Source: Nanobdellota archaeon (GTDB taxonomy: Archaea; Nanobdellota; Nanobdellia; Pacearchaeales; GW2011-AR1). From it: 64,000 nucleotides of DNA. A program made the position numbers and the translations under genes. Each line of letters begins with the position of its first letter. Position 1 is the stretch's first letter. The notes under the pieces were generated by a model. It saw only the letters and a list, made by a program, of their open reading frames with translations, did not search any database and was not told the DNA's origin. Location of the stretch: assembly GCA_038045425.1 (NCBI GenBank), contig JBBSYD010000032.1, positions 36,417 through 100,416 of the forward strand, in the 5' to 3' direction. This document shows positions 1-60,400 of the stretch, piece after piece.

Positions 1-401
1 TTAGTTTTGTATGCTTCTTCAAGAATTTCTTTTATAAATTCATAATATTTCGTGTTTGTAACATCCTTGAATTTGACAATTTTGATAAGTTTTTTCTTTT
101 CTTCAGGCAATTTTTCTACAATTTCTTTTATTTCTTTTTCTTTTTCGTCTCCTTTTCTTAGAGCGACTTTCCATGCTCTTGTTTTGTTATATTTATCTAG
201 AACCTCTAAATTTATGGCTTGAAGTCTGTCTCCAATCACTACAATAATATCTTCTTTTGTATTTTCTAATGCCCAAAGAATATATTTTTCTATATTTTCT
301 TTTGTAAAATATTTATTTCCTAAGCTAATTCCTATCCAGATATTGAATTTTTTGGATTCGACTTCTTCCTTTGTGCAACCCAAGTAGTTTATGATTTTCA
401 T
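1..401 (-). CDS. cyclodipeptide synthase (CDPS)-like protein, N-terminal 133 aa only; the C-terminus lies beyond the window start
   Basis: Reverse-strand ORF starts at ATG 399-401 (MKIINYLGC...) and runs off position 1. The motif IWIGISLGNKYFTKEN matches the AlbC catalytic region ALIGISAGNSYFSQKN (G-x-S catalytic Ser, then N). LWA...DIIVVIGD parallels AlbC LQWA...DVVYVD. Confidence 0.55.
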   Translation of the reverse strand, partial: MKIINYLGCTKEEVESKKFNIWIGISLGNKYFTKENIEKYILWALENTKEDIIVVIGDRLQAINLEVLDKYNKTRAWKVALRKGDEKEKEIKEIVEKLPEEKKKLIKIVKFKDVTNTKYYEFIKEILEEAYKT

Positions 402-707: not shown

Positions 708-1613
708 ATGACTATTGGTGATTGGATATTAATATTTTTAGTTGTTGTTTGCTTGGCAGTTTCTGGATTTTTATTTTATTCTCAGATTAGTGCTAAAACT
801 ATAGAGTATAAGCAATTTGTTTCTAATGTTACTGTTAACATGACAAATAGTAGTATTCAATTTTATCCTAATATGAGATTCTCGTCTAGTGATTTAACGT
901 ATAGTCTTGATTCTGGATGTAATGAAAATAGAAAAAAGTCTGCGATTGATGCTATGAAATTATTGGAAAGTGAAATTCCAGTGACGTTTACTCTTGGGAC
1001 TGAAAATCCAGAGATTATTATTGAATGTAGTTCAGAAGAACCTGAAATTGCTGAAAAGAATCATGTAATTGCAGGAGCGGCTAAACCTAATAATATAATA
1101 AATGCAACTAAGTTTTTTGTTATAGAAAATTCTAATATTTCTTTGTATAAGGATGAAAGTTGTGATAGGCCATTGGTGGCATTGCATGAAATGTTACATG
1201 CATTTGGTTTTGACCACAATAGTAATGAAAATAGTATAATGTATCCTATAACTAGTTGTGAAGAGGAAATTGATTTGGATATTATTAATGAGTTGAAAAG
1301 ATTGTATTCGTATGCGAGTTTGCCTGATGTTGTTATTGAAAAAGTTGTTGCTAATAGTTCTGGAAGATATATTAATTTTGAGATAGAAATAGGAAATCAG
1401 GGATTGATTGATGCGAAAAATGTTCAGTTGGACATTGTGTCTTCTGGAGAGAGCGCGAAAGTTTATGAGTTAGAAGATATTGAAGTTGGAAGGAAAAAAA
1501 TACTTTCTGTTCAGAATATTAAAGTTAAAGATGCTGAAAATGTTGAATTTAGAATAATTATGAACGAAGGGGATTTGAATATGGCAGATAATACTGCTAA
1601 ATTATATTCATAA
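708..1613 (+). CDS. membrane-anchored zinc metalloprotease, metzincin-like
   Basis: N-terminal TM helix. HEMLHAFGFDH fits the extended HExxHxxGxxH zinc-binding motif and is followed by SIMYP (Met-turn). Confidence 0.7.
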   Translation: MTIGDWILIFLVVVCLAVSGFLFYSQISAKTIEYKQFVSNVTVNMTNSSIQFYPNMRFSSSDLTYSLDSGCNENRKKSAIDAMKLLESEIPVTFTLGTENPEIIIECSSEEPEIAEKNHVIAGAAKPNNIINATKFFVIENSNISLYKDESCDRPLVALHEMLHAFGFDHNSNENSIMYPITSCEEEIDLDIINELKRLYSYASLPDVVIEKVVANSSGRYINFEIEIGNQGLIDAKNVQLDIVSSGESAKVYELEDIEVGRKKILSVQNIKVKDAENVEFRIIMNEGDLNMADNTAKLYS

Positions 1614-1623
1614 GTTTATCAAA

Positions 1624-1812
1624 AGCACGATGTGCTACCTCGACTTTTAAGTCATGGTTTGTAACAAGCACTCGTGCCATCAAGGACTTCATGTCCTTGA
1701 CTGCCATCGAGAATTTCAATTCTCGAGGTTTGGATGCCAAGAAAACCTTTGGTTTTCTGGCATAGAGAAATCTAAGAAGATTTTCTATGCTCGCGAACGT
1801 TATAACGTTCGT
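1624..1812. other. array of about 7 consecutive perfect hairpins; candidate structured ncRNA or palindrome array
   Basis: gcacgatgtgc; gcactcgtgc; caaggacttcatgtccttg; tcgagaatttcaattctcga; gccaagaaaacctttggttttctggc; catagagaaatctaagaagattttctatg; cgaacgttataacgttcg. Locally raised GC. Overlapped by a minus-strand ORF that is unlikely to be coding. Confidence 0.35.
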
Positions 1813-1832
1813 GACATATAAAAGTTTAAAAA

Positions 1833-2228
1833 GTGGTTTTATTTTGGAGGTGTGTGGCAAGGGCAGATACACGATTAGCATATTATCATTCTTTAGCAGC
1901 AATTCAAAGAGGATTTAAGTCGGATGAGGACAGAAGAGAATTTGTTGCTGAATATCCGGTTATTGCAGGAGAGATATTTTATTATTTAAATGATAGAACC
2001 TTAGGTAAAATGGTTGCTAGAACTTATGCTACGCATCCACGGGCTGAAATGCGGGAGCTTGCAAAGGTTACGAAATTGGTTTTTATGGAAAGAGATAGAA
2101 TTAAGGCTATGAAAGAATCTAGCTTGAGTGTTAGTTTAAATATGAATAGTGTTCCATTGCTTTCTCTTCAAGAAGAGGGAATTGAATTGAGTGAGGAAGA
2201 GAAATTGGATCGAAGAGTTAAGTATTAA
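1833..2228 (+). CDS. hypothetical protein; start uncertain
   Basis: 131-aa ORF flanked on both sides by hairpin arrays. Confidence 0.4.
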   Translation: MVLFWRCVARADTRLAYYHSLAAIQRGFKSDEDRREFVAEYPVIAGEIFYYLNDRTLGKMVARTYATHPRAEMRELAKVTKLVFMERDRIKAMKESSLSVSLNMNSVPLLSLQEEGIELSEEEKLDRRVKY

Positions 2229-2328
2229 ATTATATTTTTTTAATGTGAATTATAACTTGGAAATTATTATTAAATAAAATAGGGATTATTATCTAAGAAG
2301 AGACATTTGTTTAATTGCAAAAGTTTTG

Positions 2329-2510
2329 AGAGAGCAAGCTTTAAACATCAAGAACAAAGTTCTTGAGTGCCTCAAGAAGTTTAATAAACTTCTTTCAGCA
2401 TCGAGGATTTTTGATCCTCGTGGCTTAAAACTTCTACAGGAAGTTTTAAACTTCAAAATCTTTTAGATTTTGAGGTCTAAAGCTTGCAGGGAGCAAGCTT
2501 TAAATATCTC
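2329..2510. other. second array of about 6 perfect hairpins, plus a 20-nt direct repeat (gagagcaagctttaaacatc / gggagcaagctttaaatatc)
   Basis: caagaacaaagttcttg; gaagtttaataaacttc; cgaggatttttgatcctcg; ggaagttttaaacttc; caaaatcttttagattttg; aaagcttgcagggagcaagcttt. Confidence 0.35.
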
Positions 2511-2535: not shown

Positions 2536-3039
2536 ATGCCAGAAAAAGATGTATTAATAAAAGAGAAGCTTGAGCATGTCGGTTTGTTCGACTATGGAGA
2601 GTTTTATGCTTATGCGTATAATTGGTTTAAGAATGAAAACTATAGTATAGTTGAAAATAAATATACTGAAAAAGCAGGAGGAAGTTCGAGAGATATAGAG
2701 TTTGAATGGACTGCTGGAAGTAAATTAAGTGATTACTTCAAATCTGAAATAAATTTCAAGATTGTAGTTGATGGAATGAGCGATGTAGAAGTCGAGATTG
2801 ATGGAAAGAAGAAGAAGATGAACAAGGGAAGAGTTAGAATGGAGTTCAAGGGAGTTTTGCATAGAGATATTGCTGGAAAGTATGAAAGTACTGGATTTTA
2901 CATGTTTTTAAGAGGAATTTATAATAAATATGTTATTCCTAATAGAGTTGACGTAATGGAAGACAAAGTTAAGGATGATACTCGTGACTTTAAAGAGAAA
3001 TTGAAGGCATTTCTCGAAATGAGTGGAAAGAGAAGTTAA
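2536..3039 (+). CDS. hypothetical protein
   Basis: 167-aa ORF with no recognisable motif. Confidence 0.45.
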   Translation: MPEKDVLIKEKLEHVGLFDYGEFYAYAYNWFKNENYSIVENKYTEKAGGSSRDIEFEWTAGSKLSDYFKSEINFKIVVDGMSDVEVEIDGKKKKMNKGRVRMEFKGVLHRDIAGKYESTGFYMFLRGIYNKYVIPNRVDVMEDKVKDDTRDFKEKLKAFLEMSGKRS

Positions 3040-5287: not shown

Positions 5288-6094
5288 ATGCATAAAAAGA
5301 GTGAAATAATATTTAGATTAAAAGAGTTAGAAAAGGAATTAGGAAGAAGACCTGTAAAAACAGATAGTCCTTCGCTTTATACCTTGTCAAGAAAATATTT
5401 TGGTACTTGGAATAATATGATGACTGAAGCAGGATATCAATGTAAATTATTTCAAATTCCTGTAACTCCTAAAGAGATTACTTCAGATTTAAGTTATTTT
5501 TTAGGATTAATGTCTACTGATGGGCACATACAAGTAATAAAACAAAGATGGCTGTACCGTGTTATGATGTATACTAGCGAAAAAGAAGAAGTAGAAATGA
5601 TATTAAATATTATTAAAAAGTTGTTTAGTTATACTGCTTCAGTTAGAGCAAGAAAAACAGGATTTTCTAAAAGACCAAATTATGAAATATACATATCTTC
5701 TAAAAAGATTGCATTATTTTTAAATTCGTTAGGAATTCCGATAGGAGCTAAATCCTATAATCTTTTAGTTCCTAAGATGTTCTTTGAGAATAAGCAAGAA
5801 TATTTTTGGGATTATTTAAGGGGAGTCTTTGATGGAGATGGTTCAATTGTTTTTAGTAATAATAATTTTAGCTTTAAAATCTCATCTGGTTCAGTTAGAT
5901 TTCTTGAGGGAATAAATAAGATTCTTATAGAGAAAGGATTTAAGAATTTTAAGATTTCTAAACAAGATGAGTATGTTTGGATTCTAAGAACAAATATAAA
6001 GGAAAATATTAAACAACTATATTCTTGTATTTATAATAATTCTTCGTTTTTTTATCCTCGAAAACAGTTAAAATGGTCTAAGCAGTATATTTAA
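5288..6094 (+). CDS. LAGLIDADG homing endonuclease (double motif) with N-terminal HEAR-like domain
   Basis: LGLMSTDGHI and LRGVFDGDGSI are two LAGLIDADG-type motifs. N-terminal YFGTWNNMMTEAGY resembles the homing-endonuclease-associated repeat. Confidence 0.7.
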   Translation: MHKKSEIIFRLKELEKELGRRPVKTDSPSLYTLSRKYFGTWNNMMTEAGYQCKLFQIPVTPKEITSDLSYFLGLMSTDGHIQVIKQRWLYRVMMYTSEKEEVEMILNIIKKLFSYTASVRARKTGFSKRPNYEIYISSKKIALFLNSLGIPIGAKSYNLLVPKMFFENKQEYFWDYLRGVFDGDGSIVFSNNNFSFKISSGSVRFLEGINKILIEKGFKNFKISKQDEYVWILRTNIKENIKQLYSCIYNNSSFFYPRKQLKWSKQYI

Positions 6095-6111: not shown

Positions 6112-6271
6112 TAATTACATACCCTCCGTAGCTCAATGGCAGAGCGCCCGGCTGTAGTTAATATAACTAGCACAGACTTTCCATATGGAAACAGGATGAA
6201 GTGCGAACAGAGCATTTTCGTTAGAAAATAGCAGAACCCGGGCTACCCAAGTTCGATTCTCGGCGGGGGGA
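6112..6271 (+). tRNA. tRNA-Tyr (anticodon GTA) with an 89-nt intron after position 37 (intron about 6148..6236)
   Basis: Acceptor ccctccg/cgggggg with C1-G72 (archaeal Tyr identity). U8A9, D-arm gctc-aatggca-gagc, anticodon arm cccgg-ctgtag[intron]c-ccggg, T-arm ccaag-ttcgatt-ctcgg (one mismatch), discriminator A. Confidence 0.7.
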
Positions 6272-7958: not shown

Positions 7959-8267
7959 ACAATCGTTAATTAATTAAAATACAGATTTTAGCAAAATTAA
8001 TCTCCTCTTGGCAAAAGTATTTTTTAGGGTAGTTTTAAATATCCGAGTGTGTTTGAAATAGTATGAAGGACATACCTGGATTGAGTGAAGATGAGCTTTT
8101 GGGAAGAGGAATTAAAGGTAAACCCAAGAAGAAAAGGATTAAGATTATAAAAGACGATGAAGAAATTGTTGTGAGGAAATAATATTTCTAGGAGGGGAAT
8201 TTTAGAAGTAGCGAGTAATACAGCTCTGCTATATATAGCATAATTGCTTGGAAATTATGGACTTAAA

Positions 8268-9695
8268 ATGAACAAATCTAAACTTAATGTTTTTATATTT
8301 TTATTTGCACTAATGGGTATTGCAATTGTGTTATCTATGCAATTTGCTGTTGCGTATAATTCGCCTGCAACTGTAAATCTTGGAACTGCAGGTAATTTTG
8401 TTATATTATCAAAGGCAGGAATAACAACTACTGGAACTACGGCTATTGTTGGAAATTTGGGAGTGAGCCCAATTGATAGTACTGCAATGACTGGATTTGG
8501 TTTGATAGCAGATTCTTCTAATAAATTTTCTACCTCTTCTTTGGTAACTGGAAAGATATATGCATCAGATTATACTTCTCCAACTCCATCTGTTATGACT
8601 AGTGCTGTGAGTGATATGGAAACTGCATACACTAATTCTGCTGGAAGAACTTTACCAGATGCTACTGAATTGGGTGCTGGAGATATTAGTGGAATGACTA
8701 TTGCTCCTGGATTGTATAAGTGGGGAACTGGAGTTCATATTGATAATAGAGGCGTTACTCTTTCTGGAAACTCGAATGATGTTTGGATATTCCAAATATC
8801 CCAGGATTTAACGGTGGATAGTGCTGCAATTATAACTCTAACTGGCGGGGCACAGGCAAGGAATGTATTCTGGCAAGTCGGTGGAGGCACAGGAGTTATT
8901 CTTGGAACAACGTCTGTATTTAATGGTAATATCTTAGCAATAGCTGGAATAGTAATGAATACTGGAGCAACATTAAATGGGAGAGCATTGGCACAAACGG
9001 CAGTCACATTGGATGCCAATATGGTTAGAGTACCTTCAAATTTAGTAGAGGTAATAGTTTCTGATGAGAGAAATAACTCTGAAATAAATAATTCTTCAAA
9101 TTCTACTTCTCGTGAAAATTCGAGTTTAGTTAATGATTCTGTAGTTGTAAATAATCAGGAAAGTAATGGTGGTTCATCTTTAAATGATAATGGAATAGGA
9201 CAAGAATTAAGTCAAAGAATAGAAGAGCTAAGAACTGAATTTAGATATGGAAACTTTACAACTTCTCTGGGAGAGTATTTGAATGTTAGAGAAATTGGCG
9301 CGGGGATAAGAGAGTTAAGGGAAAATAATATTTCTGTTAGGACTAGATTAAATTTAACTAAAGTTGGGAATAATGACTCTAAACTAGAAGTTGAATTAAG
9401 CAATGGAAGAAATGCTGAGATAAAAGTAATGCCTTCTGCTGCATCGGAAATTGCGTTAGCAAGACTTAAATTGAAGGTATGTAATGAAACAAATAATTGT
9501 ACAATTGAATTGAAGGAAGTTGGCAAGGGAAATGATACTAGAGTTGCCTATGAAACTCAGGTTGAAAGACATTATAGGATTTTAGGAATATTTTCAGCAA
9601 AAGCGCAGAACAAGATTCAGATTGATGCAGAAACAGGAGATGTTATTAGCGAGAATAAGCCTTGGTGGGCATTTATAAGTTCAAAGCAAGATTAA
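8268..9695 (+). CDS. secreted DUF3494 (ice-binding-like) family protein with Asn/Ser-rich linker and C-terminal domain
   Basis: Signal/TM at the N-terminus. NLGTAGNFVILSKAGITTTGTTAIVGNLGVSPIDSTAMTGFG matches the DUF3494 consensus (LGTAANFAVLAGS...GDLGVSPG..ITGF). Confidence 0.6.
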   Translation: MNKSKLNVFIFLFALMGIAIVLSMQFAVAYNSPATVNLGTAGNFVILSKAGITTTGTTAIVGNLGVSPIDSTAMTGFGLIADSSNKFSTSSLVTGKIYASDYTSPTPSVMTSAVSDMETAYTNSAGRTLPDATELGAGDISGMTIAPGLYKWGTGVHIDNRGVTLSGNSNDVWIFQISQDLTVDSAAIITLTGGAQARNVFWQVGGGTGVILGTTSVFNGNILAIAGIVMNTGATLNGRALAQTAVTLDANMVRVPSNLVEVIVSDERNNSEINNSSNSTSRENSSLVNDSVVVNNQESNGGSSLNDNGIGQELSQRIEELRTEFRYGNFTTSLGEYLNVREIGAGIRELRENNISVRTRLNLTKVGNNDSKLEVELSNGRNAEIKVMPSAASEIALARLKLKVCNETNNCTIELKEVGKGNDTRVAYETQVERHYRILGIFSAKAQNKIQIDAETGDVISENKPWWAFISSKQD

Positions 9696-37654: not shown

Positions 37655-38887
37655 TTATATCTTTGCTTCCATCTCAACAATAAAGTCAGGTTTAATTCCT
37701 CTACAAAACATTTCCATAATTACACAGCAGATATTATGGCAAATTACTTTACATAAAACCTCATTTACTTGAGCGTTCCATTTCTTAGAACGAACAGAAT
37801 CGCCAAACTTAGATTTTATCATATACACCGAGGTCTCCGCGTTTGACCTCTGGTGATATGATTGTAAAAATTCCTCATTGTGTAAAGCAAAATAATGATA
37901 AAGTCTTTTCCAGATTCCACCTTTTCGACTTGGAGTAGAATTTATCTTAAATGGAATAAATGCCTTAGTTCCACTATTTTCTATTAACTCTAAATTATCC
38001 CTTGATAAGTAGGCTTTATCCGCACTTAATTCTTGCATATCAAAGAACTCTTTAGCTGTTTGATATAATTGTTTAAGCTGTGGGCAGTCATTATCAAATT
38101 CAGAAGTTATCTTAACGCTGGTAATTCCATTTGTAATTGTTCCAGTAATGAAATGACATTTAACCCATTTTCTTGAACTTATGGCTTTTCCATGCTTGAA
38201 TGAATACCATCTTTGAAAATTAGAAGTTCCAAATCCCGTGCTGTCTATGGCAAATTTCCTATCAATCTCTTTTAGAGGCAAGGCAGTGATTGTTACTAAT
38301 TGGCTAAGTAAATCGGTTAATTCTTCTTTATTGAAATAATCTGACATAGAACTTCTTGGTGTGATACTTTCTATGAAGTTACTTGATTTTGCCTGTTCCA
38401 TATCTGACGTGAATCTTCTACTTGAAAAAGTGGAATAAACTTTGAAAATCATAGAATAAATAGTATCTCTCAAAGAATTTTTAGGTTTACCAAAAGTATA
38501 AGGTCTCTCTTGTATTTTGCTTGTTAAGTCTGCTAGGAGCTTCATAAACAACTCTTTCTCTTTCGTTTGAGCTAGATTATAGTTATGCCAATCTTGAGCG
38601 TAGGTGACCTTCTTAGTAGCGGTTATAGTCACATTACCTTGCTTGTCTACTTCGTGAGTTACTATAAACTCAACTGCCCAAATATGTTTACACTTACATC
38701 CTCTCTCTTTATGGTCTTTGCAATTACATGAAGTATTATCTCCTCTGCTCTTAACAAAGTAAAATCCTGCTCCAGACTGGCTTGGAACTTTCCATCTACC
38801 TTTTTCATCTTGAACTATTCTTGAAGTCTGAGCTATTACTAAGCCTCTTTGTTTTCTTACTTCGATTGGATTATATTGTGTTTCCAT
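37655..38887 (-). CDS. DDE transposase (IS4/IS5-like DDE_Tnp_1) with N-terminal SWIM zinc finger
   Basis: CNCKDHKERGCKCKHIW is a SWIM finger (CxCx(n)CxH). The DDE candidates are AIDSTGF, LSADKAY and RSNAETSVYMIKSKFG. Confidence 0.7.
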   Translation of the reverse strand: METQYNPIEVRKQRGLVIAQTSRIVQDEKGRWKVPSQSGAGFYFVKSRGDNTSCNCKDHKERGCKCKHIWAVEFIVTHEVDKQGNVTITATKKVTYAQDWHNYNLAQTKEKELFMKLLADLTSKIQERPYTFGKPKNSLRDTIYSMIFKVYSTFSSRRFTSDMEQAKSSNFIESITPRSSMSDYFNKEELTDLLSQLVTITALPLKEIDRKFAIDSTGFGTSNFQRWYSFKHGKAISSRKWVKCHFITGTITNGITSVKITSEFDNDCPQLKQLYQTAKEFFDMQELSADKAYLSRDNLELIENSGTKAFIPFKINSTPSRKGGIWKRLYHYFALHNEEFLQSYHQRSNAETSVYMIKSKFGDSVRSKKWNAQVNEVLCKVICHNICCVIMEMFCRGIKPDFIVEMEAKI

Positions 38888-42633: not shown

Positions 42634-42748
42634 GCGCTAGTAGTTTAGTGGTAAAACGGCTCGTTGCCAACTCTAGGAGTCTAAAGAACTACAATTGTTT
42701 AGACTAGGTAAAAACGAGCAGTCTCGAGTCCGATTCTCGACTTGCGCA
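42634..42748 (+). tRNA. tRNA-Gly (anticodon GCC) with an intron of about 44 nt at or next to the anticodon loop
   Basis: Acceptor gcgctag/cttgcgc (one U-U mismatch), D-arm gttt-agtggta-aaac, anticodon stem gctcg/cgagc separated by about 44 nt, loop ttgccaa, T-arm tcgag-tccgatt-ctcga, discriminator A. Confidence 0.6.
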
Positions 42749-43533: not shown

Positions 43534-44299
43534 AATAATGTACTTTTTAGTAACTTATATTACTTTCTATATTTATAAAAAGATAGTAGGAATAATTAAA
43601 AACAATGCATTCTCTTAAGATATGTGACTTTTCAGTTTTTTATTAATAAAATTCAAAGAACCATTGAAATTCTGTGTATCATTAAAGATAATCGCTCTCA
43701 TTTTTAAAGGAGGGAGAGATATCCAGTAAAGGAACACCTCTCCCTGTTATTCTATTAAGATTTATAGGATAAACTTATATATAAATATTTGTTTGGAAAG
43801 ATAATGTGCACTAATCTTGTTACTAATACTACTGCTATTTGACATTTTTGTTAAATTGATTTGCAATCATTAAAACCATAAAACAGGTATAAAAAATGAT
43901 TAAATCCTATTTGTTGCTCTTAAATACTTTCTTGCATTTTCCTCAAAATTGTCTCCAAATAGTTTTCTGAATATTTCATTAGTCGCTTTCAATTGAGATT
44001 CTATTAGTATCCTTTGTTGTTCAAACAAGGACTTATCTAAAAGAAGTTTTTCGGCATAAAGTTTCACAAACTCTGAATCTGATATCTCTAAAGTCATGAT
44101 TTATCTAAGAGGAGTTTGTATTTATAACTTTCTAACAAGTCGGGGAGAATGTTTATTAATATGATAAATTATTTGGATACTTAGGAAGATAGTTGCGTAT
44201 TTCTTCTAAGATAAAGAGAATTTGAGCCACAGTAAGCTGAGGAATATTTACTCAAAATGTAATGAATGGGTTTATAAACCGCCTAAAAAGAAAAATTAT

Positions 44300-45864: not shown

Positions 45865-45935
45865 GGCCCATTAGGCTAATGGTAGACCGGTTCGTTTACA
45901 CCGAACATGCGGAGGTCCGATTCCTCCATGGGCCA
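45865..45935 (+). tRNA. tRNA-Val (anticodon TAC)
   Basis: Acceptor ggcccat/atgggcc (perfect), anticodon arm gttcg-tttacac-cgaac, T-arm ggagg-tccgatt-cctcc, discriminator A. The D-stem is imperfect. Confidence 0.65.
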
Positions 45936-45938
45936 CTT

Positions 45939-51032: not shown

Positions 51033-51175
51033 AAAGAATAAAACCTTGTTAGCTTATGCAACAACTTAACTTCATCATACATCAGATAATTATTTCTCTT
51101 AAATTATTTTATTTCTAAATTCTATCCCTGCTTTGCTTTATCCCCACAGCAAGCTATGGGGTATTACGGATAATA

Positions 51176-56011: not shown

Positions 56012-56023
56012 TTTGATTATTGG

Positions 56024-56096
56024 TAGCAGGTGTTGGAATTGAACCAAACATTTCCAGGATGTAATCCTGGCGGGCTAACCATTACCCCAACCTGCC
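56024..56096 (-). tRNA. tRNA, predicted Val (anticodon TAC), with encoded CCA at 56021..56023
   Basis: Reverse complement reads ggcaggt-tg-gggt-aatggtta-gccc-g-ccagg-attacat-cctgg-aaatg-tttgg-ttcaatt-ccaac-acctgct-a-cca. This gives G1-U72 wobble and one T-stem mismatch. Confidence 0.55.
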
Positions 56097-60328: not shown

Positions 60329-60400
60329 GGCTTCATAGTCTAGTGGTAGGACAAATCTTTCACGTGGATTGGGCAGGGGTTCAATTCCCCTTGGGGCCAT
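60329..60400 (+). tRNA. tRNA-Val (anticodon CAC)
   Basis: Acceptor ggcttca/tggggcc (two G-U pairs), anticodon arm aatct-ttcacgt-ggatt, T-arm agggg-ttcaatt-cccct, discriminator A. The D-stem is short. Confidence 0.55.

Follow-up and report, generated by a model that had tools for sequence, protein, structure and literature searches.

Among described systems, those closest to the element considered here are the repetitive extragenic palindromic (REP) units and the bacterial interspersed mosaic elements (BIMEs). REP units are extragenic palindromes of 20-40 nt whose stems measure 5-13 bp and whose loops measure 2-20 nt, and are found singly or in clusters (PMC3733652). The present analysis concerns a stretch of 64,000 nucleotides from a Nanobdellota archaeon of the DPANN group (hereafter the window), in which a small gene is flanked on both sides by arrays of hairpins. 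The gene encodes a member of a protein family that we call MARLD. Tentatively, we read the arrays as clusters of REP/BIME-like palindromic DNA repeats that came with, or grew around, an inserted gene. The units would therefore work like REP/BIME clusters without being members of that family, and both the repeat family and its link to the MARLD family of open reading frames (ORFs) appear not to have been described before. Our literature survey, which was not exhaustive, turned up no archaeal families of REP-like palindromic repeats.

The resemblance to REP units and BIMEs lies both in form and in setting. Units here measure 20-35 nt, with stems of 7-13 bp and loops of 2-12 nt, and are frequently clustered. 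They are extragenic, following the ends of genes, and all those of the window lie between genes. They occur singly and in mosaic clusters, in both orientations, and a single-copy gene is flanked by repeats (by an inverted pair at the related locus L093), recalling the genes of REP-associated tyrosine transposases (RAYTs) that lie between REPs. The differences are equally clear. The host is archaeal rather than bacterial, and the aligned units have no GTAG or CGTC tag, their conserved part being instead the stem foot TCRAGRA. Where it was measured, copy number is low, set against the tens to thousands of copies dispersed through one genome that mark REP units; the flanked protein is a helical bundle of some 95 residues with an acidic tail rather than an HUH/Y1 transposase, and repeats are found at just three of the 12 loci of the family.

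Miniature inverted-repeat transposable elements (MITEs) and mobile insertion cassettes are like the locus in their small size, strong fold-back potential and intergenic insertion, as well as in having a passenger ORF between repeat-bearing ends and imperfect direct repeats at one boundary. Here, however, it is the internal hairpins rather than the termini that are conserved, the outer inverted repeats differ between loci, no parent insertion sequence (IS) was found in the window and the element is not multi-copy in the sampled DNA. The IS200/IS605 elements and palindrome-associated transposable elements (PATEs) share stems made only of Watson-Crick pairs, the apparent lack of a target duplication and subterminal hairpins read as single-stranded DNA. 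IS200/IS605 elements have one imperfect hairpin per end whereas arrays of six or seven are seen here, and neither TnpA nor TnpB was found among the window ORFs tested, the ORF between the arrays having no Pfam match. Integron cassettes, finally, also comprise a small ORF bounded by hairpin-forming, recombination-like sequences and inserted at a hotspot. An attC site is a single imperfect hairpin of 57-141 nt with R''/L''-L'/R' boxes (RYYYAAC/GTTRRRY) and extrahelical bases. By inspection, such core sites are absent here, short perfect hairpins being present instead, and the ORF, unlike that of a cassette, has its own promoter. No Phage_integrase match was obtained for 30 window ORFs compared with Pfam, the smaller ORFs not all being scanned.

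The inserted block consists of array 1, the ORF and array 2, and covers about 874 bp (~1614-2487) between the stop codon of a Peptidase_M10-like gene and the ancestral promoter of a gene for a 167-aa protein (Table 1). At the same junction the two closest relatives have only 47 nt (L087) and 77 nt (L088), with protein identities of 75% and 60% and the gene order archease / 73-aa / peptidase / 167-aa retained. Since the block is missing there, we consider it a lineage-specific insertion, with gain rather than loss as the direction of change inferred by parsimony. The L087 sequence 'TGAAGGGTAACCTTTAAATAT' aligns with 'TGCAGGGAGCAAGCTTTAAATAT' of the window, placing the right boundary of the insert at ~2487/2488. 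The comparison with L087 reveals no duplication at the outer junctions of the insert; only imperfect direct repeats of 15-30 nt are present. The adjacency of the peptidase and 167-aa genes is kept in 54 of 82 related loci, usually with a gap of ~80 nt, and in 15 of the 54 the junction is filled by unrelated, lineage-specific ORFs on either strand (inserts of 0.2-2.8 kb in L012, L013, L014, L017, L030, L037, L042, L047, L071, L073, L077 and others). The junction is thus an insertion hotspot. When the surroundings of the 167-aa gene were scanned for hairpin clusters in 80 DPANN loci, no cluster was comparable with the arrays of the window.

The region 1551-2560 is identical across six independently assembled contigs and so is not an assembly artefact; by the same token, the six ORF-bearing contigs, being 100% identical, contribute no covariation information. 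The block is single-copy in the population. Searches of phage and plasmid collections with blastn and tblastn gave no match. The third-position GC content of the ORF, 0.248, falls inside the host range (0.223 +/- 0.031), so that composition gives no hint of a recent foreign origin.

The first-pass annotation of the window, made from the letters alone, had reported dense palindromes on both sides of the ORF, and these were borne out. A scan of the whole 64 kb for perfect stems of at least 7 bp with loops of 2-8 nt yielded 58 hairpins, 11 of them within 1680-2502 and the remainder mostly chance matches of A and T only; no comparable density is seen in the other 63 kb. In dinucleotide shuffles of the insert (1614-2510) 0.65 hairpins were expected against the 11 observed, with a maximum of five in 1000 shuffles. 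Taken separately, array 1 has four against 0.12 expected and array 2 seven against 0.35, while the ORF has none.

Each array holds seven almost perfect stem-loops next to one another. In array 1 (1624-1814) the composite hairpin at 1624-1677 is followed by five stems of 8-13 bp. Array 2 (2348-2502) contains seven perfect stems of 7-10 bp, at 2348-2366, 2360-2378, 2374-2394, 2402-2420, 2425-2449, 2453-2473 and 2478-2502. The first three of these overlap and are mutually exclusive, leaving six able to form together, in agreement with the six downstream hairpins first annotated. The stems had all been described as perfect, which holds for array 2 and needs amending for array 1, which has two bulges and one G-T pair; otherwise the description stands. 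Likewise, the 20-nt direct repeat that had been noticed is real (2329-2348 / 2488-2507, 17 of 20 positions identical) and extends to 30 nt at 83% identity (2320-2349 / 2479-2508). A raised GC content had been claimed for both arrays. The rise is clear in array 1 (0.415) and only modest in array 2 (0.352), relative to a gene mean of 0.315 and to 0.18 in the spacer 2229-2328; the window as a whole is AT-rich, at 31.7% GC.

Some details of the arrays bear on their origin and possible folding. Within the composite hairpin, the outer helix encloses a 3-bp ACC/GGT helix and then an inner stem, GACTT tt AAGTC. Hairpins 1734-1763 and 1760-1790 have four nucleotides (GCAT) in common, several stems are palindromic through their centre, with 'loops' of 0-2 nt, and local direct repeats flank sub-blocks of the arrays. 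In the last hairpin of array 2 (2478-2502), the loop AGGGA and right arm GCAAGCTTTA are, by comparison with L087, ancestral promoter DNA of the 167-aa gene, comprising its transcription factor B recognition element (BRE) and TATA box. The same GCAAGCTTTA at 2334-2343 can also pair with 2478-2487, closing array 2 as a 154-nt multi-branch structure.

Table 1. Features of the hairpin-flanked gene and its surroundings, in window coordinates. Lower-case letters are loops; R1 is the covariance model of type-1 units.
Feature	Position	Strand	Sequence or structure	Remarks
Cyclodipeptide-synthase gene	3-401	-		5' side
Gene for 73-aa membrane protein				5' side, next in order
Peptidase_M10-like gene	708-1613			5' side, adjoining array 1
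Composite hairpin	1624-1677		outer helix GCACGA(T)GTGCT / AGCACTCGTGC	11 bp, one bulge; flanked by 15-nt direct repeat 1614-1628 / 1657-1671
Type-1 hairpin unit	1680-1700		TCAAGGAC ttcat GTCCTTGA	R1 20.4 bits
Type-1 hairpin unit	1703-1728 (stem core 1707-1726)		(CC a) TCGAGAATT tc AATTCTCGA (GG)	R1 29.6 bits
Hairpin	1734-1763		ATGCCA(a)GAAAACC ttt GGTTTTCTGGCAT	13 bp, one bulged A
Hairpin	1760-1790		GCATAGA(g)AAATCT aaga AGATTTTCTATGC	13 bp, one bulged G
Palindrome	1791-1814		TCGCGAACGTTA / TAACGTTCGTGA	12 bp including one G-T; ends 10 nt 5' of ORF TATA box
ORF TATA box	1825-1832	+	TTTAAAAA	29 nt before GTG 1854
MARLD-family gene	1854-2228	+		124 aa, all-helical; starts at GTG 1854, not 1833
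Run of seven T	2235-2241	+		6 nt after ORF stop codon; resembles archaeal terminator
30-nt repeat, upstream copy	2320-2349			degenerate copy of promoter-proximal hairpin plus TATA-like TTTAAAC
Three overlapping hairpins	2348-2394		TCAAGAAC aaa GTTCTTGA (type 1); TTCTTGAG tgc CTCAAGAA; AAGAAGTTT aat AAACTTCTT	type-1 model 30 bits
Type-1-like hairpin	2402-2420		CGAGGAT ttttg ATCCTCG	24.3 bits
Hairpin	2425-2449		TTAAAACTTC tacag GAAGTTTTAA	10 bp
Type-1 hairpin	2451-2475		(CT)TCAAAATCT ttt AGATTTTGA(GG)	31 bits
Hairpin	2478-2502		TAAAGCTTGC aggga GCAAGCTTTA	left arm TAAAGCTTGC is insert DNA
TATA box of 167-aa gene	2499-2506	+	TTTAAATA	conserved in L087 and L088
167-aa gene	2536-3039			3' side, after array 2
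453-aa gene				3' side, after 167-aa gene
Example hairpin unit			CATCAAGAACAAAGTTCTTGAG	

Five of the window hairpins carry the stem foot TCRAGRA...TYCTYGA of what we call the type-1 repeat, while the others do not fit the covariance model R1 of that type. In the type-1 consensus the stem base reads (C)A-TCRAGRA...TYCTYGA, the upper stem varies and covaries, and the loop is free. As a strict palindrome, TCRAGRA-N2-25-TYCTYGA, it is present 16 times in ~670 kb of DPANN DNA against ~0.35 expected. Nine of these instances fall in the window and L093 loci and five are intergenic in other genomes; the two in coding DNA (L018, L075) are probably due to chance. Dispersed intergenic units are seen in L007, L009, L010, L033 and L058. 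R1 detects no further copy in the window outside the arrays. Units on which R1 was not trained are found in L007 (2376-2473), L010 (4514-4561) and L230 (597-652). A scan of IMG/VR for CATCAAGAA...TTCTTGA returned 120 non-specific matches, the lone apparent cluster (L125) being coding sequence.

In an alignment of 17 units, 95% of cells are paired and six of the nine pairs have changed on both sides. The eight conserved stem pairs show no one-sided (G-U) state at all. The ninth, innermost pair, the only one to lie wholly outside the lengths used for selection, is paired in just 11 of the 17. Neither the length nor the sequence of the loop is conserved among the aligned units, and their flanks show a weak (C)A on the 5' side and are variable on the 3' side.

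Type-1 hairpins lie within 400 nt of three of the 12 distinct MARLD-family loci, those of the window, L093 and L230, which are on non-sister branches of a star-like family. With ~6 background sites per 600 kb, and the index case left out, a rough binomial test of this link gives P ~0.008. The closest parallel is L093 (homologue P0104; genome GCA_964502865.1, 46% GC), which has the same architecture, with an array of 330 nt upstream of the ORF and one of 155 nt downstream, both composed largely of units of the type-1 kind. There, the ORF is bracketed by two copies of a 70-nt two-hairpin module that are inverted relative to each other (z = 12.6). Array 2 of the window matches the L093 upstream array in reverse (z = 10.6): at 2451-2475 the 34-nt match to the reverse complement of that array includes a compensatory change from A-T to G-C. 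The overlapping hairpins at 2348-2394 are homologous to L009 4556-4608 as well as to the L093 upstream array, and array 1 shares with L093 two units in the order TCAAGRAC then TCGAGAAT. Beyond these shared modules, the number, order and orientation of units differ between loci. In L230, on a contig of 49% GC, units scoring 32.9 and 22.3 bits lie directly upstream of the ORF homologue P0120, the hairpins taking the place of the coding region for the first ~45 residues of the family.

Single units are also found in other DPANN genomes. In L009, L010 and L058 a type-1 hairpin follows the stop codon of the 167-aa gene and precedes the TATA box of its downstream neighbour, lying 3-18 nt upstream of that box. 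These three loci are not mutual nearest relatives, and at that spacer their nearest relatives have no match to the type-1 model at E<=1. This suggests repeated gain or loss of units at the spacer following the 167-aa gene.

A second conserved element was observed, CC(A/G)CAGCAAGCTG(T/C)GG(G/A)GTATT, consisting of an inner hairpin of 6-7 bp and a GTATT tail. In ~700 kb of DPANN DNA it has eight copies, of which two lie within the L093 array: window 51144-51165 and 44227-44248, L093 2815-2836 and 2930-2951, L007 7148-7169(-), L029 3664-3685(-), L034 22-43(-) and L074 3015-3036(-). Their outer stems are unrelated in sequence (TTATCC/GGATAA, TTTGAG/CTCAAA, CATTCTGAG/CTCAGAATG and TTTCAAACTGG/CCAGTTTGAAA). 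The element has no Rfam match and the copies have no downstream gene in common.

The ORF between the arrays, which had served as a mere landmark (1833..2228) in the first-pass annotation, is a real gene of a hairpin-associated family. We place its start at GTG 1854 because homologues share the N-terminus MAR(L/A)D. It corresponds to NCBI protein AABX11_02535 of a 'Nanoarchaeota archaeon' metagenome-assembled genome from Hainich groundwater. A HMMER search of 1.84 billion representatives retrieved 20 remote homologues of 99-157 aa, with E-values from 3e-10 to 8e-4; a word-index search returned only the protein itself. Conserved residues of the family are Y11, H12, P35, Y43, D47, G51, Y58, R67 and R80. 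The AlphaFold model (AF2; predicted local distance difference test score 85, and 98 for residues 10-80) comprises a confident five-helix domain, then a disordered acidic tail and a short C-terminal helix. No match or structural neighbour was obtained in Pfam, NCBIfam, PHROG, PADLOC, PDB or BFVD, and the protein has no HUH motif, tyrosine-transposase features or recognisable DNA-binding fold. A protein-pattern scan of IMG/VR found no MARLD homologue. The neighbours of other family members are diverse: P0118 (L092 41-424) is directly downstream of a PIN-domain gene, another homologue follows an SNase gene (L223) and a third lies between Mre11/Rad50 and a proteasome subunit (L226). No partner gene is conserved.

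In this window, -29/-30 relative to the start codon is where TATA 8-mers are most frequent. The ORF has its TATA box at this modal spacing, implying a leaderless mRNA. Oligo-T termination is established in archaea, and the run of seven T after the ORF is read as a terminator on that basis. Since the ORF is followed by this run and is separated from array 1 by a TATA box, the arrays are likely to lie outside the ORF mRNA, and array 2, judging by these signals, probably does not belong to it.

For RNA folding, array 1 has z-scores of -9.1 and -8.7 on its two strands, and array 2 has -6.1 and -8.4; under DNA parameters the z-scores become stronger, at -11.0 and -9.05. Fold energy is equal on both strands. 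The minimum-free-energy folds contain 3-6 G-U among ~75 pairs on either strand, and a test of G-U strand asymmetry, with such pairs rare and symmetric, gave no strand signal. The Rfam scan envisaged in the first-pass annotation matched no family in the window apart from tRNAs, which alone passed the gathering threshold; permissive runs (E<=10) gave noise and the best score in 1500-2700 was 22.6 bits against a threshold of 54. We favour repeat clusters over one folded RNA because units vary in order, number and orientation, loops are unconserved, the strands fold equally well, G-U pairing is scarce and Rfam gives no match. Among the possibilities that had first been offered, a degenerate mobile element, or more exactly the mobile or repeat option, is the best supported: the block is an insertion, five hairpins belong to a dispersed repeat family and their order varies.

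How such clusters would arise and persist can be outlined. The units may be maintained and multiplied at the DNA level through local tandem or inverted duplication, and intrastrand template switching would copy one arm from the other, giving strictly Watson-Crick stems. This, we propose, is why the stems are free of wobble pairs. It is established that the arms of inverted repeats can be created and homogenised by template switching (PMC8794818, PMC8604942). The window has several of its likely hallmarks: perfect arms without wobble intermediates, overlapping alternative hairpins and arms copied from adjacent DNA, the left arm of 2478-2502 mirroring the ancestral promoter. Template switching is, however, a mutational mechanism and not an element family, and leaves conservation of the stem-foot motif in distant genomes unexplained. 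The clusters would have travelled with the MARLD gene or accreted around it, and mobilisation in trans is possible. The stem foot may be a recognition site and, by analogy with the recognition of REP by RAYT, the MARLD protein may be what recognises it. Any transcribed units would form stable hairpins lying between a gene's end and the promoter that follows. Side effects like those of BIMEs can be envisaged, namely a barrier at the 3' end or insulation, and the last hairpin may occlude the BRE/TATA of the 167-aa gene.

Several points weigh against reading the arrays as REP/BIME-like clusters. Copy number is low, with no unit outside the arrays in 64 kb and ~6 intergenic sites in ~600 kb of other DPANN loci, and nine of the 12 MARLD-family loci are compact and free of hairpins. 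No transposase or other mobilising enzyme was identified for the arrays, and the insert has neither a clean target-site duplication nor conserved termini. The covariation count is partly circular, the units having been chosen as perfect palindromes. The sequences of the outer closing helices differ from locus to locus, as expected from selection on structure. Finally, the same stem-base motif persists in genomes ranging from 32 to 49% GC and beside ORFs only 30-40% identical, which argues for a function, as a recognition site, rather than for purely selfish or neutral DNA.

One can also imagine an undescribed, DPANN-confined archaeal repeat-protein system, in which hairpins with the TCRAGRA foot, and perhaps the CCRCAGCAAGCTGYGG-GTATT hairpins, are single-stranded DNA or RNA recognition sites bound, processed or mobilised by the MARLD protein. 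We consider this unlikely. If it existed, it might be a functional analogue of REP/RAYT or of a hairpin ribonucleoprotein (RNP), built from unrelated parts and with the fold of the MARLD protein not seen so far, an idea in which we have similarly little confidence.

A structured RNA, the first option of the earlier annotation, has been weakened. Each array would be transcribed, as a small RNA of its own or as the 3' untranslated region of the preceding gene, and adopt a multi-hairpin fold; we think this improbable. The very strong fold z-scores and the compensatory changes in the stems are what such an RNA would show. Moreover, array 2 and the L093 downstream array, of 154 and 155 nt, are each closed by a perfect outer helix of 10-13 bp whose sequences are unrelated (GCAAGCTTTA in the window, ATAGCAGACGACA in L093; that of L007, TTGAAACATC, differs again), and a TATA-like TTTAAAC lies just upstream of array 2. 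The hairpins also co-occur with one protein family, and in a version of this explanation that we find no more probable the stem bases bind a protein, possibly MARLD, to make an RNP, a protein sponge or a stability element. Besides the equal folding of the strands, the near absence of G-U, the unconserved loops and the failure of Rfam even at E<=10, however, stems palindromic through the centre are unneeded for an RNA, the signals around the ORF probably put the arrays outside its mRNA, and no multi-hairpin architecture is shared with L093, where hairpin order and number differ.

Rather unlikely, too, is that the arrays are the ends of a mobile cassette, a non-autonomous element of MITE or mobile-insertion-cassette type with its transposase elsewhere and the ORF as passenger cargo. 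That the ~874-bp block is an insertion fits with this, as do the L093 module flanking the ORF as an inverted repeat, the imperfect 20-30-nt direct repeat bracketing array 2 and the presence of the ORF family in compact host contexts without arrays, as for captured cargo. The window arrays, however, are not an inverted pair (z ~3.6), conserved termini and a short clean target-site duplication are lacking, the block is single-copy in the population and the capture of one gene family in three non-sister branches would need explaining. The sole transposase found in the window (DDE_Tnp_1, 37655-38887, minus strand) has no related ends. As a candidate parent IS it was rejected, having no clear terminal inverted repeats and no similarity to the hairpins, with only the window examined.

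Arrays of binding sites on duplex DNA, whether operators or a centromere-like site, bound by an autoregulating MARLD protein or by another dimeric factor, seem quite improbable. In favour are the conserved half-site TCRAGRA and the position of the arrays on either side of the gene for the protein itself. In addition, each array ends in a hairpin that adjoins or overlaps a BRE/TATA promoter (1791-1814 next to the TATA at 1825; 2478-2502 over that at 2499), and the units of L009, L010 and L058 similarly closely precede a TATA box. The palindromes may to that extent form a regulatory array, as first suggested. Yet half-sites are anywhere from 19 to 29 nt or more apart, and 46 nt apart in L010, a spread incompatible with a rigid dimer on B-form DNA, and covariation in the upper stem matters only for an extruded hairpin. 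Furthermore, the MARLD protein has no recognisable DNA-binding fold, and in compact genomes anything intergenic adjoins a promoter.

There is virtually no chance that the arrays reflect coincidence, misassembly or coding sequence since, although minus-strand (1597-1902, 101 aa) and 55-aa ORFs overlap them, neither has a family match (nor did the homologue envisaged over 1597-1902 in the first-pass annotation emerge), no shuffle reaches the observed hairpin count, six independent assemblies agree and the same type of hairpin recurs in unrelated genomes.

Other candidates were set aside. There is no cdc6/orc1 gene or origin recognition box (ORB) repeat nearby to indicate a replication origin. 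The hairpins are not followed by T-runs, as those of intrinsic terminators would be, and, unlike the repeats of a CRISPR array, the units are not identical and adjoin one another with no spacer between them. A type III toxin-antitoxin system (ToxIN-like) was rejected for lack of tandem direct repeats and of a PADLOC or Pfam match to the ORF, and a retron and a group I or II intron on their anatomy. The paper on the Rep-Arvir rolling-circle protein provides no precedent, that protein being unrelated and longer than 400 aa.

The wider setting offered further observations. The 167-aa protein belongs to a conserved DPANN-wide family of more than 100 clusters at 40-75% identity, with no match in scans of Pfam, NCBIfam and PHROG. 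In three lineages (L051 3885-3967, L063 3902-3976 and window 2478-2502) hairpins of 8-11 bp run by their 3' arm into the TATA box of its gene, examples being GCAAGATTTAT / ATA and GAACTTTT / AAATAG. This suggests that palindromes form recurrently on this promoter. The cyclodipeptide synthase gene at the start of the window, from a DPANN genome, is full length in L001 (2856-3548); it and an acetyltransferase gene are both missing from the syntenic region of L087. A 483-aa ORF (8244-9695) has a strong match to the Ice_binding domain (E 3e-74).

The Rfam scan also found tRNA genes with long introns in the window, two in number (6122-6271 and 42634-42748, 150 and 115 nt in total), which ARAGORN misses. 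Just upstream of the first is a free-standing ORF with LAGLIDADG/HNH repeats (5288-6094). Two tRNA-Val(TAC) genes on opposite strands (45865-45936 and 56021-56096) and a tRNA-Val(CAC) gene (60329-60399) lie within 15 kb. Perfect palindromes or hairpin pairs are present in other DPANN loci (L064 7232-7307, L082 6301-6378, L069 2244-2319, L033 6246-6263, L007 6416-6436 and L011 8036-8164), and in some of them, for instance ACCACACACT aa AGTGTGTGGT, the centre measures 2 nt. Most are no further than ~60 nt from an intron-containing tRNA gene; for the L064 pair the distance to the closest such gene is ~800 nt.

In the tiny, streamlined genomes of DPANN archaea, where the spacers between genes are very short, stretches of 190 nt made purely of hairpins are unexpected. 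One hairpin here has been built onto the BRE/TATA of a conserved gene. The work provides three practical markers, namely a hairpin family ready for covariance models, a conserved second motif and an insertion hotspot. If the MARLD protein does recognise the hairpins, it would represent a new nucleic-acid-binding fold and a biochemically testable system. If the units are mobile or self-expanding, they would provide these symbionts with a new route to genome plasticity and to the remodelling of promoters.

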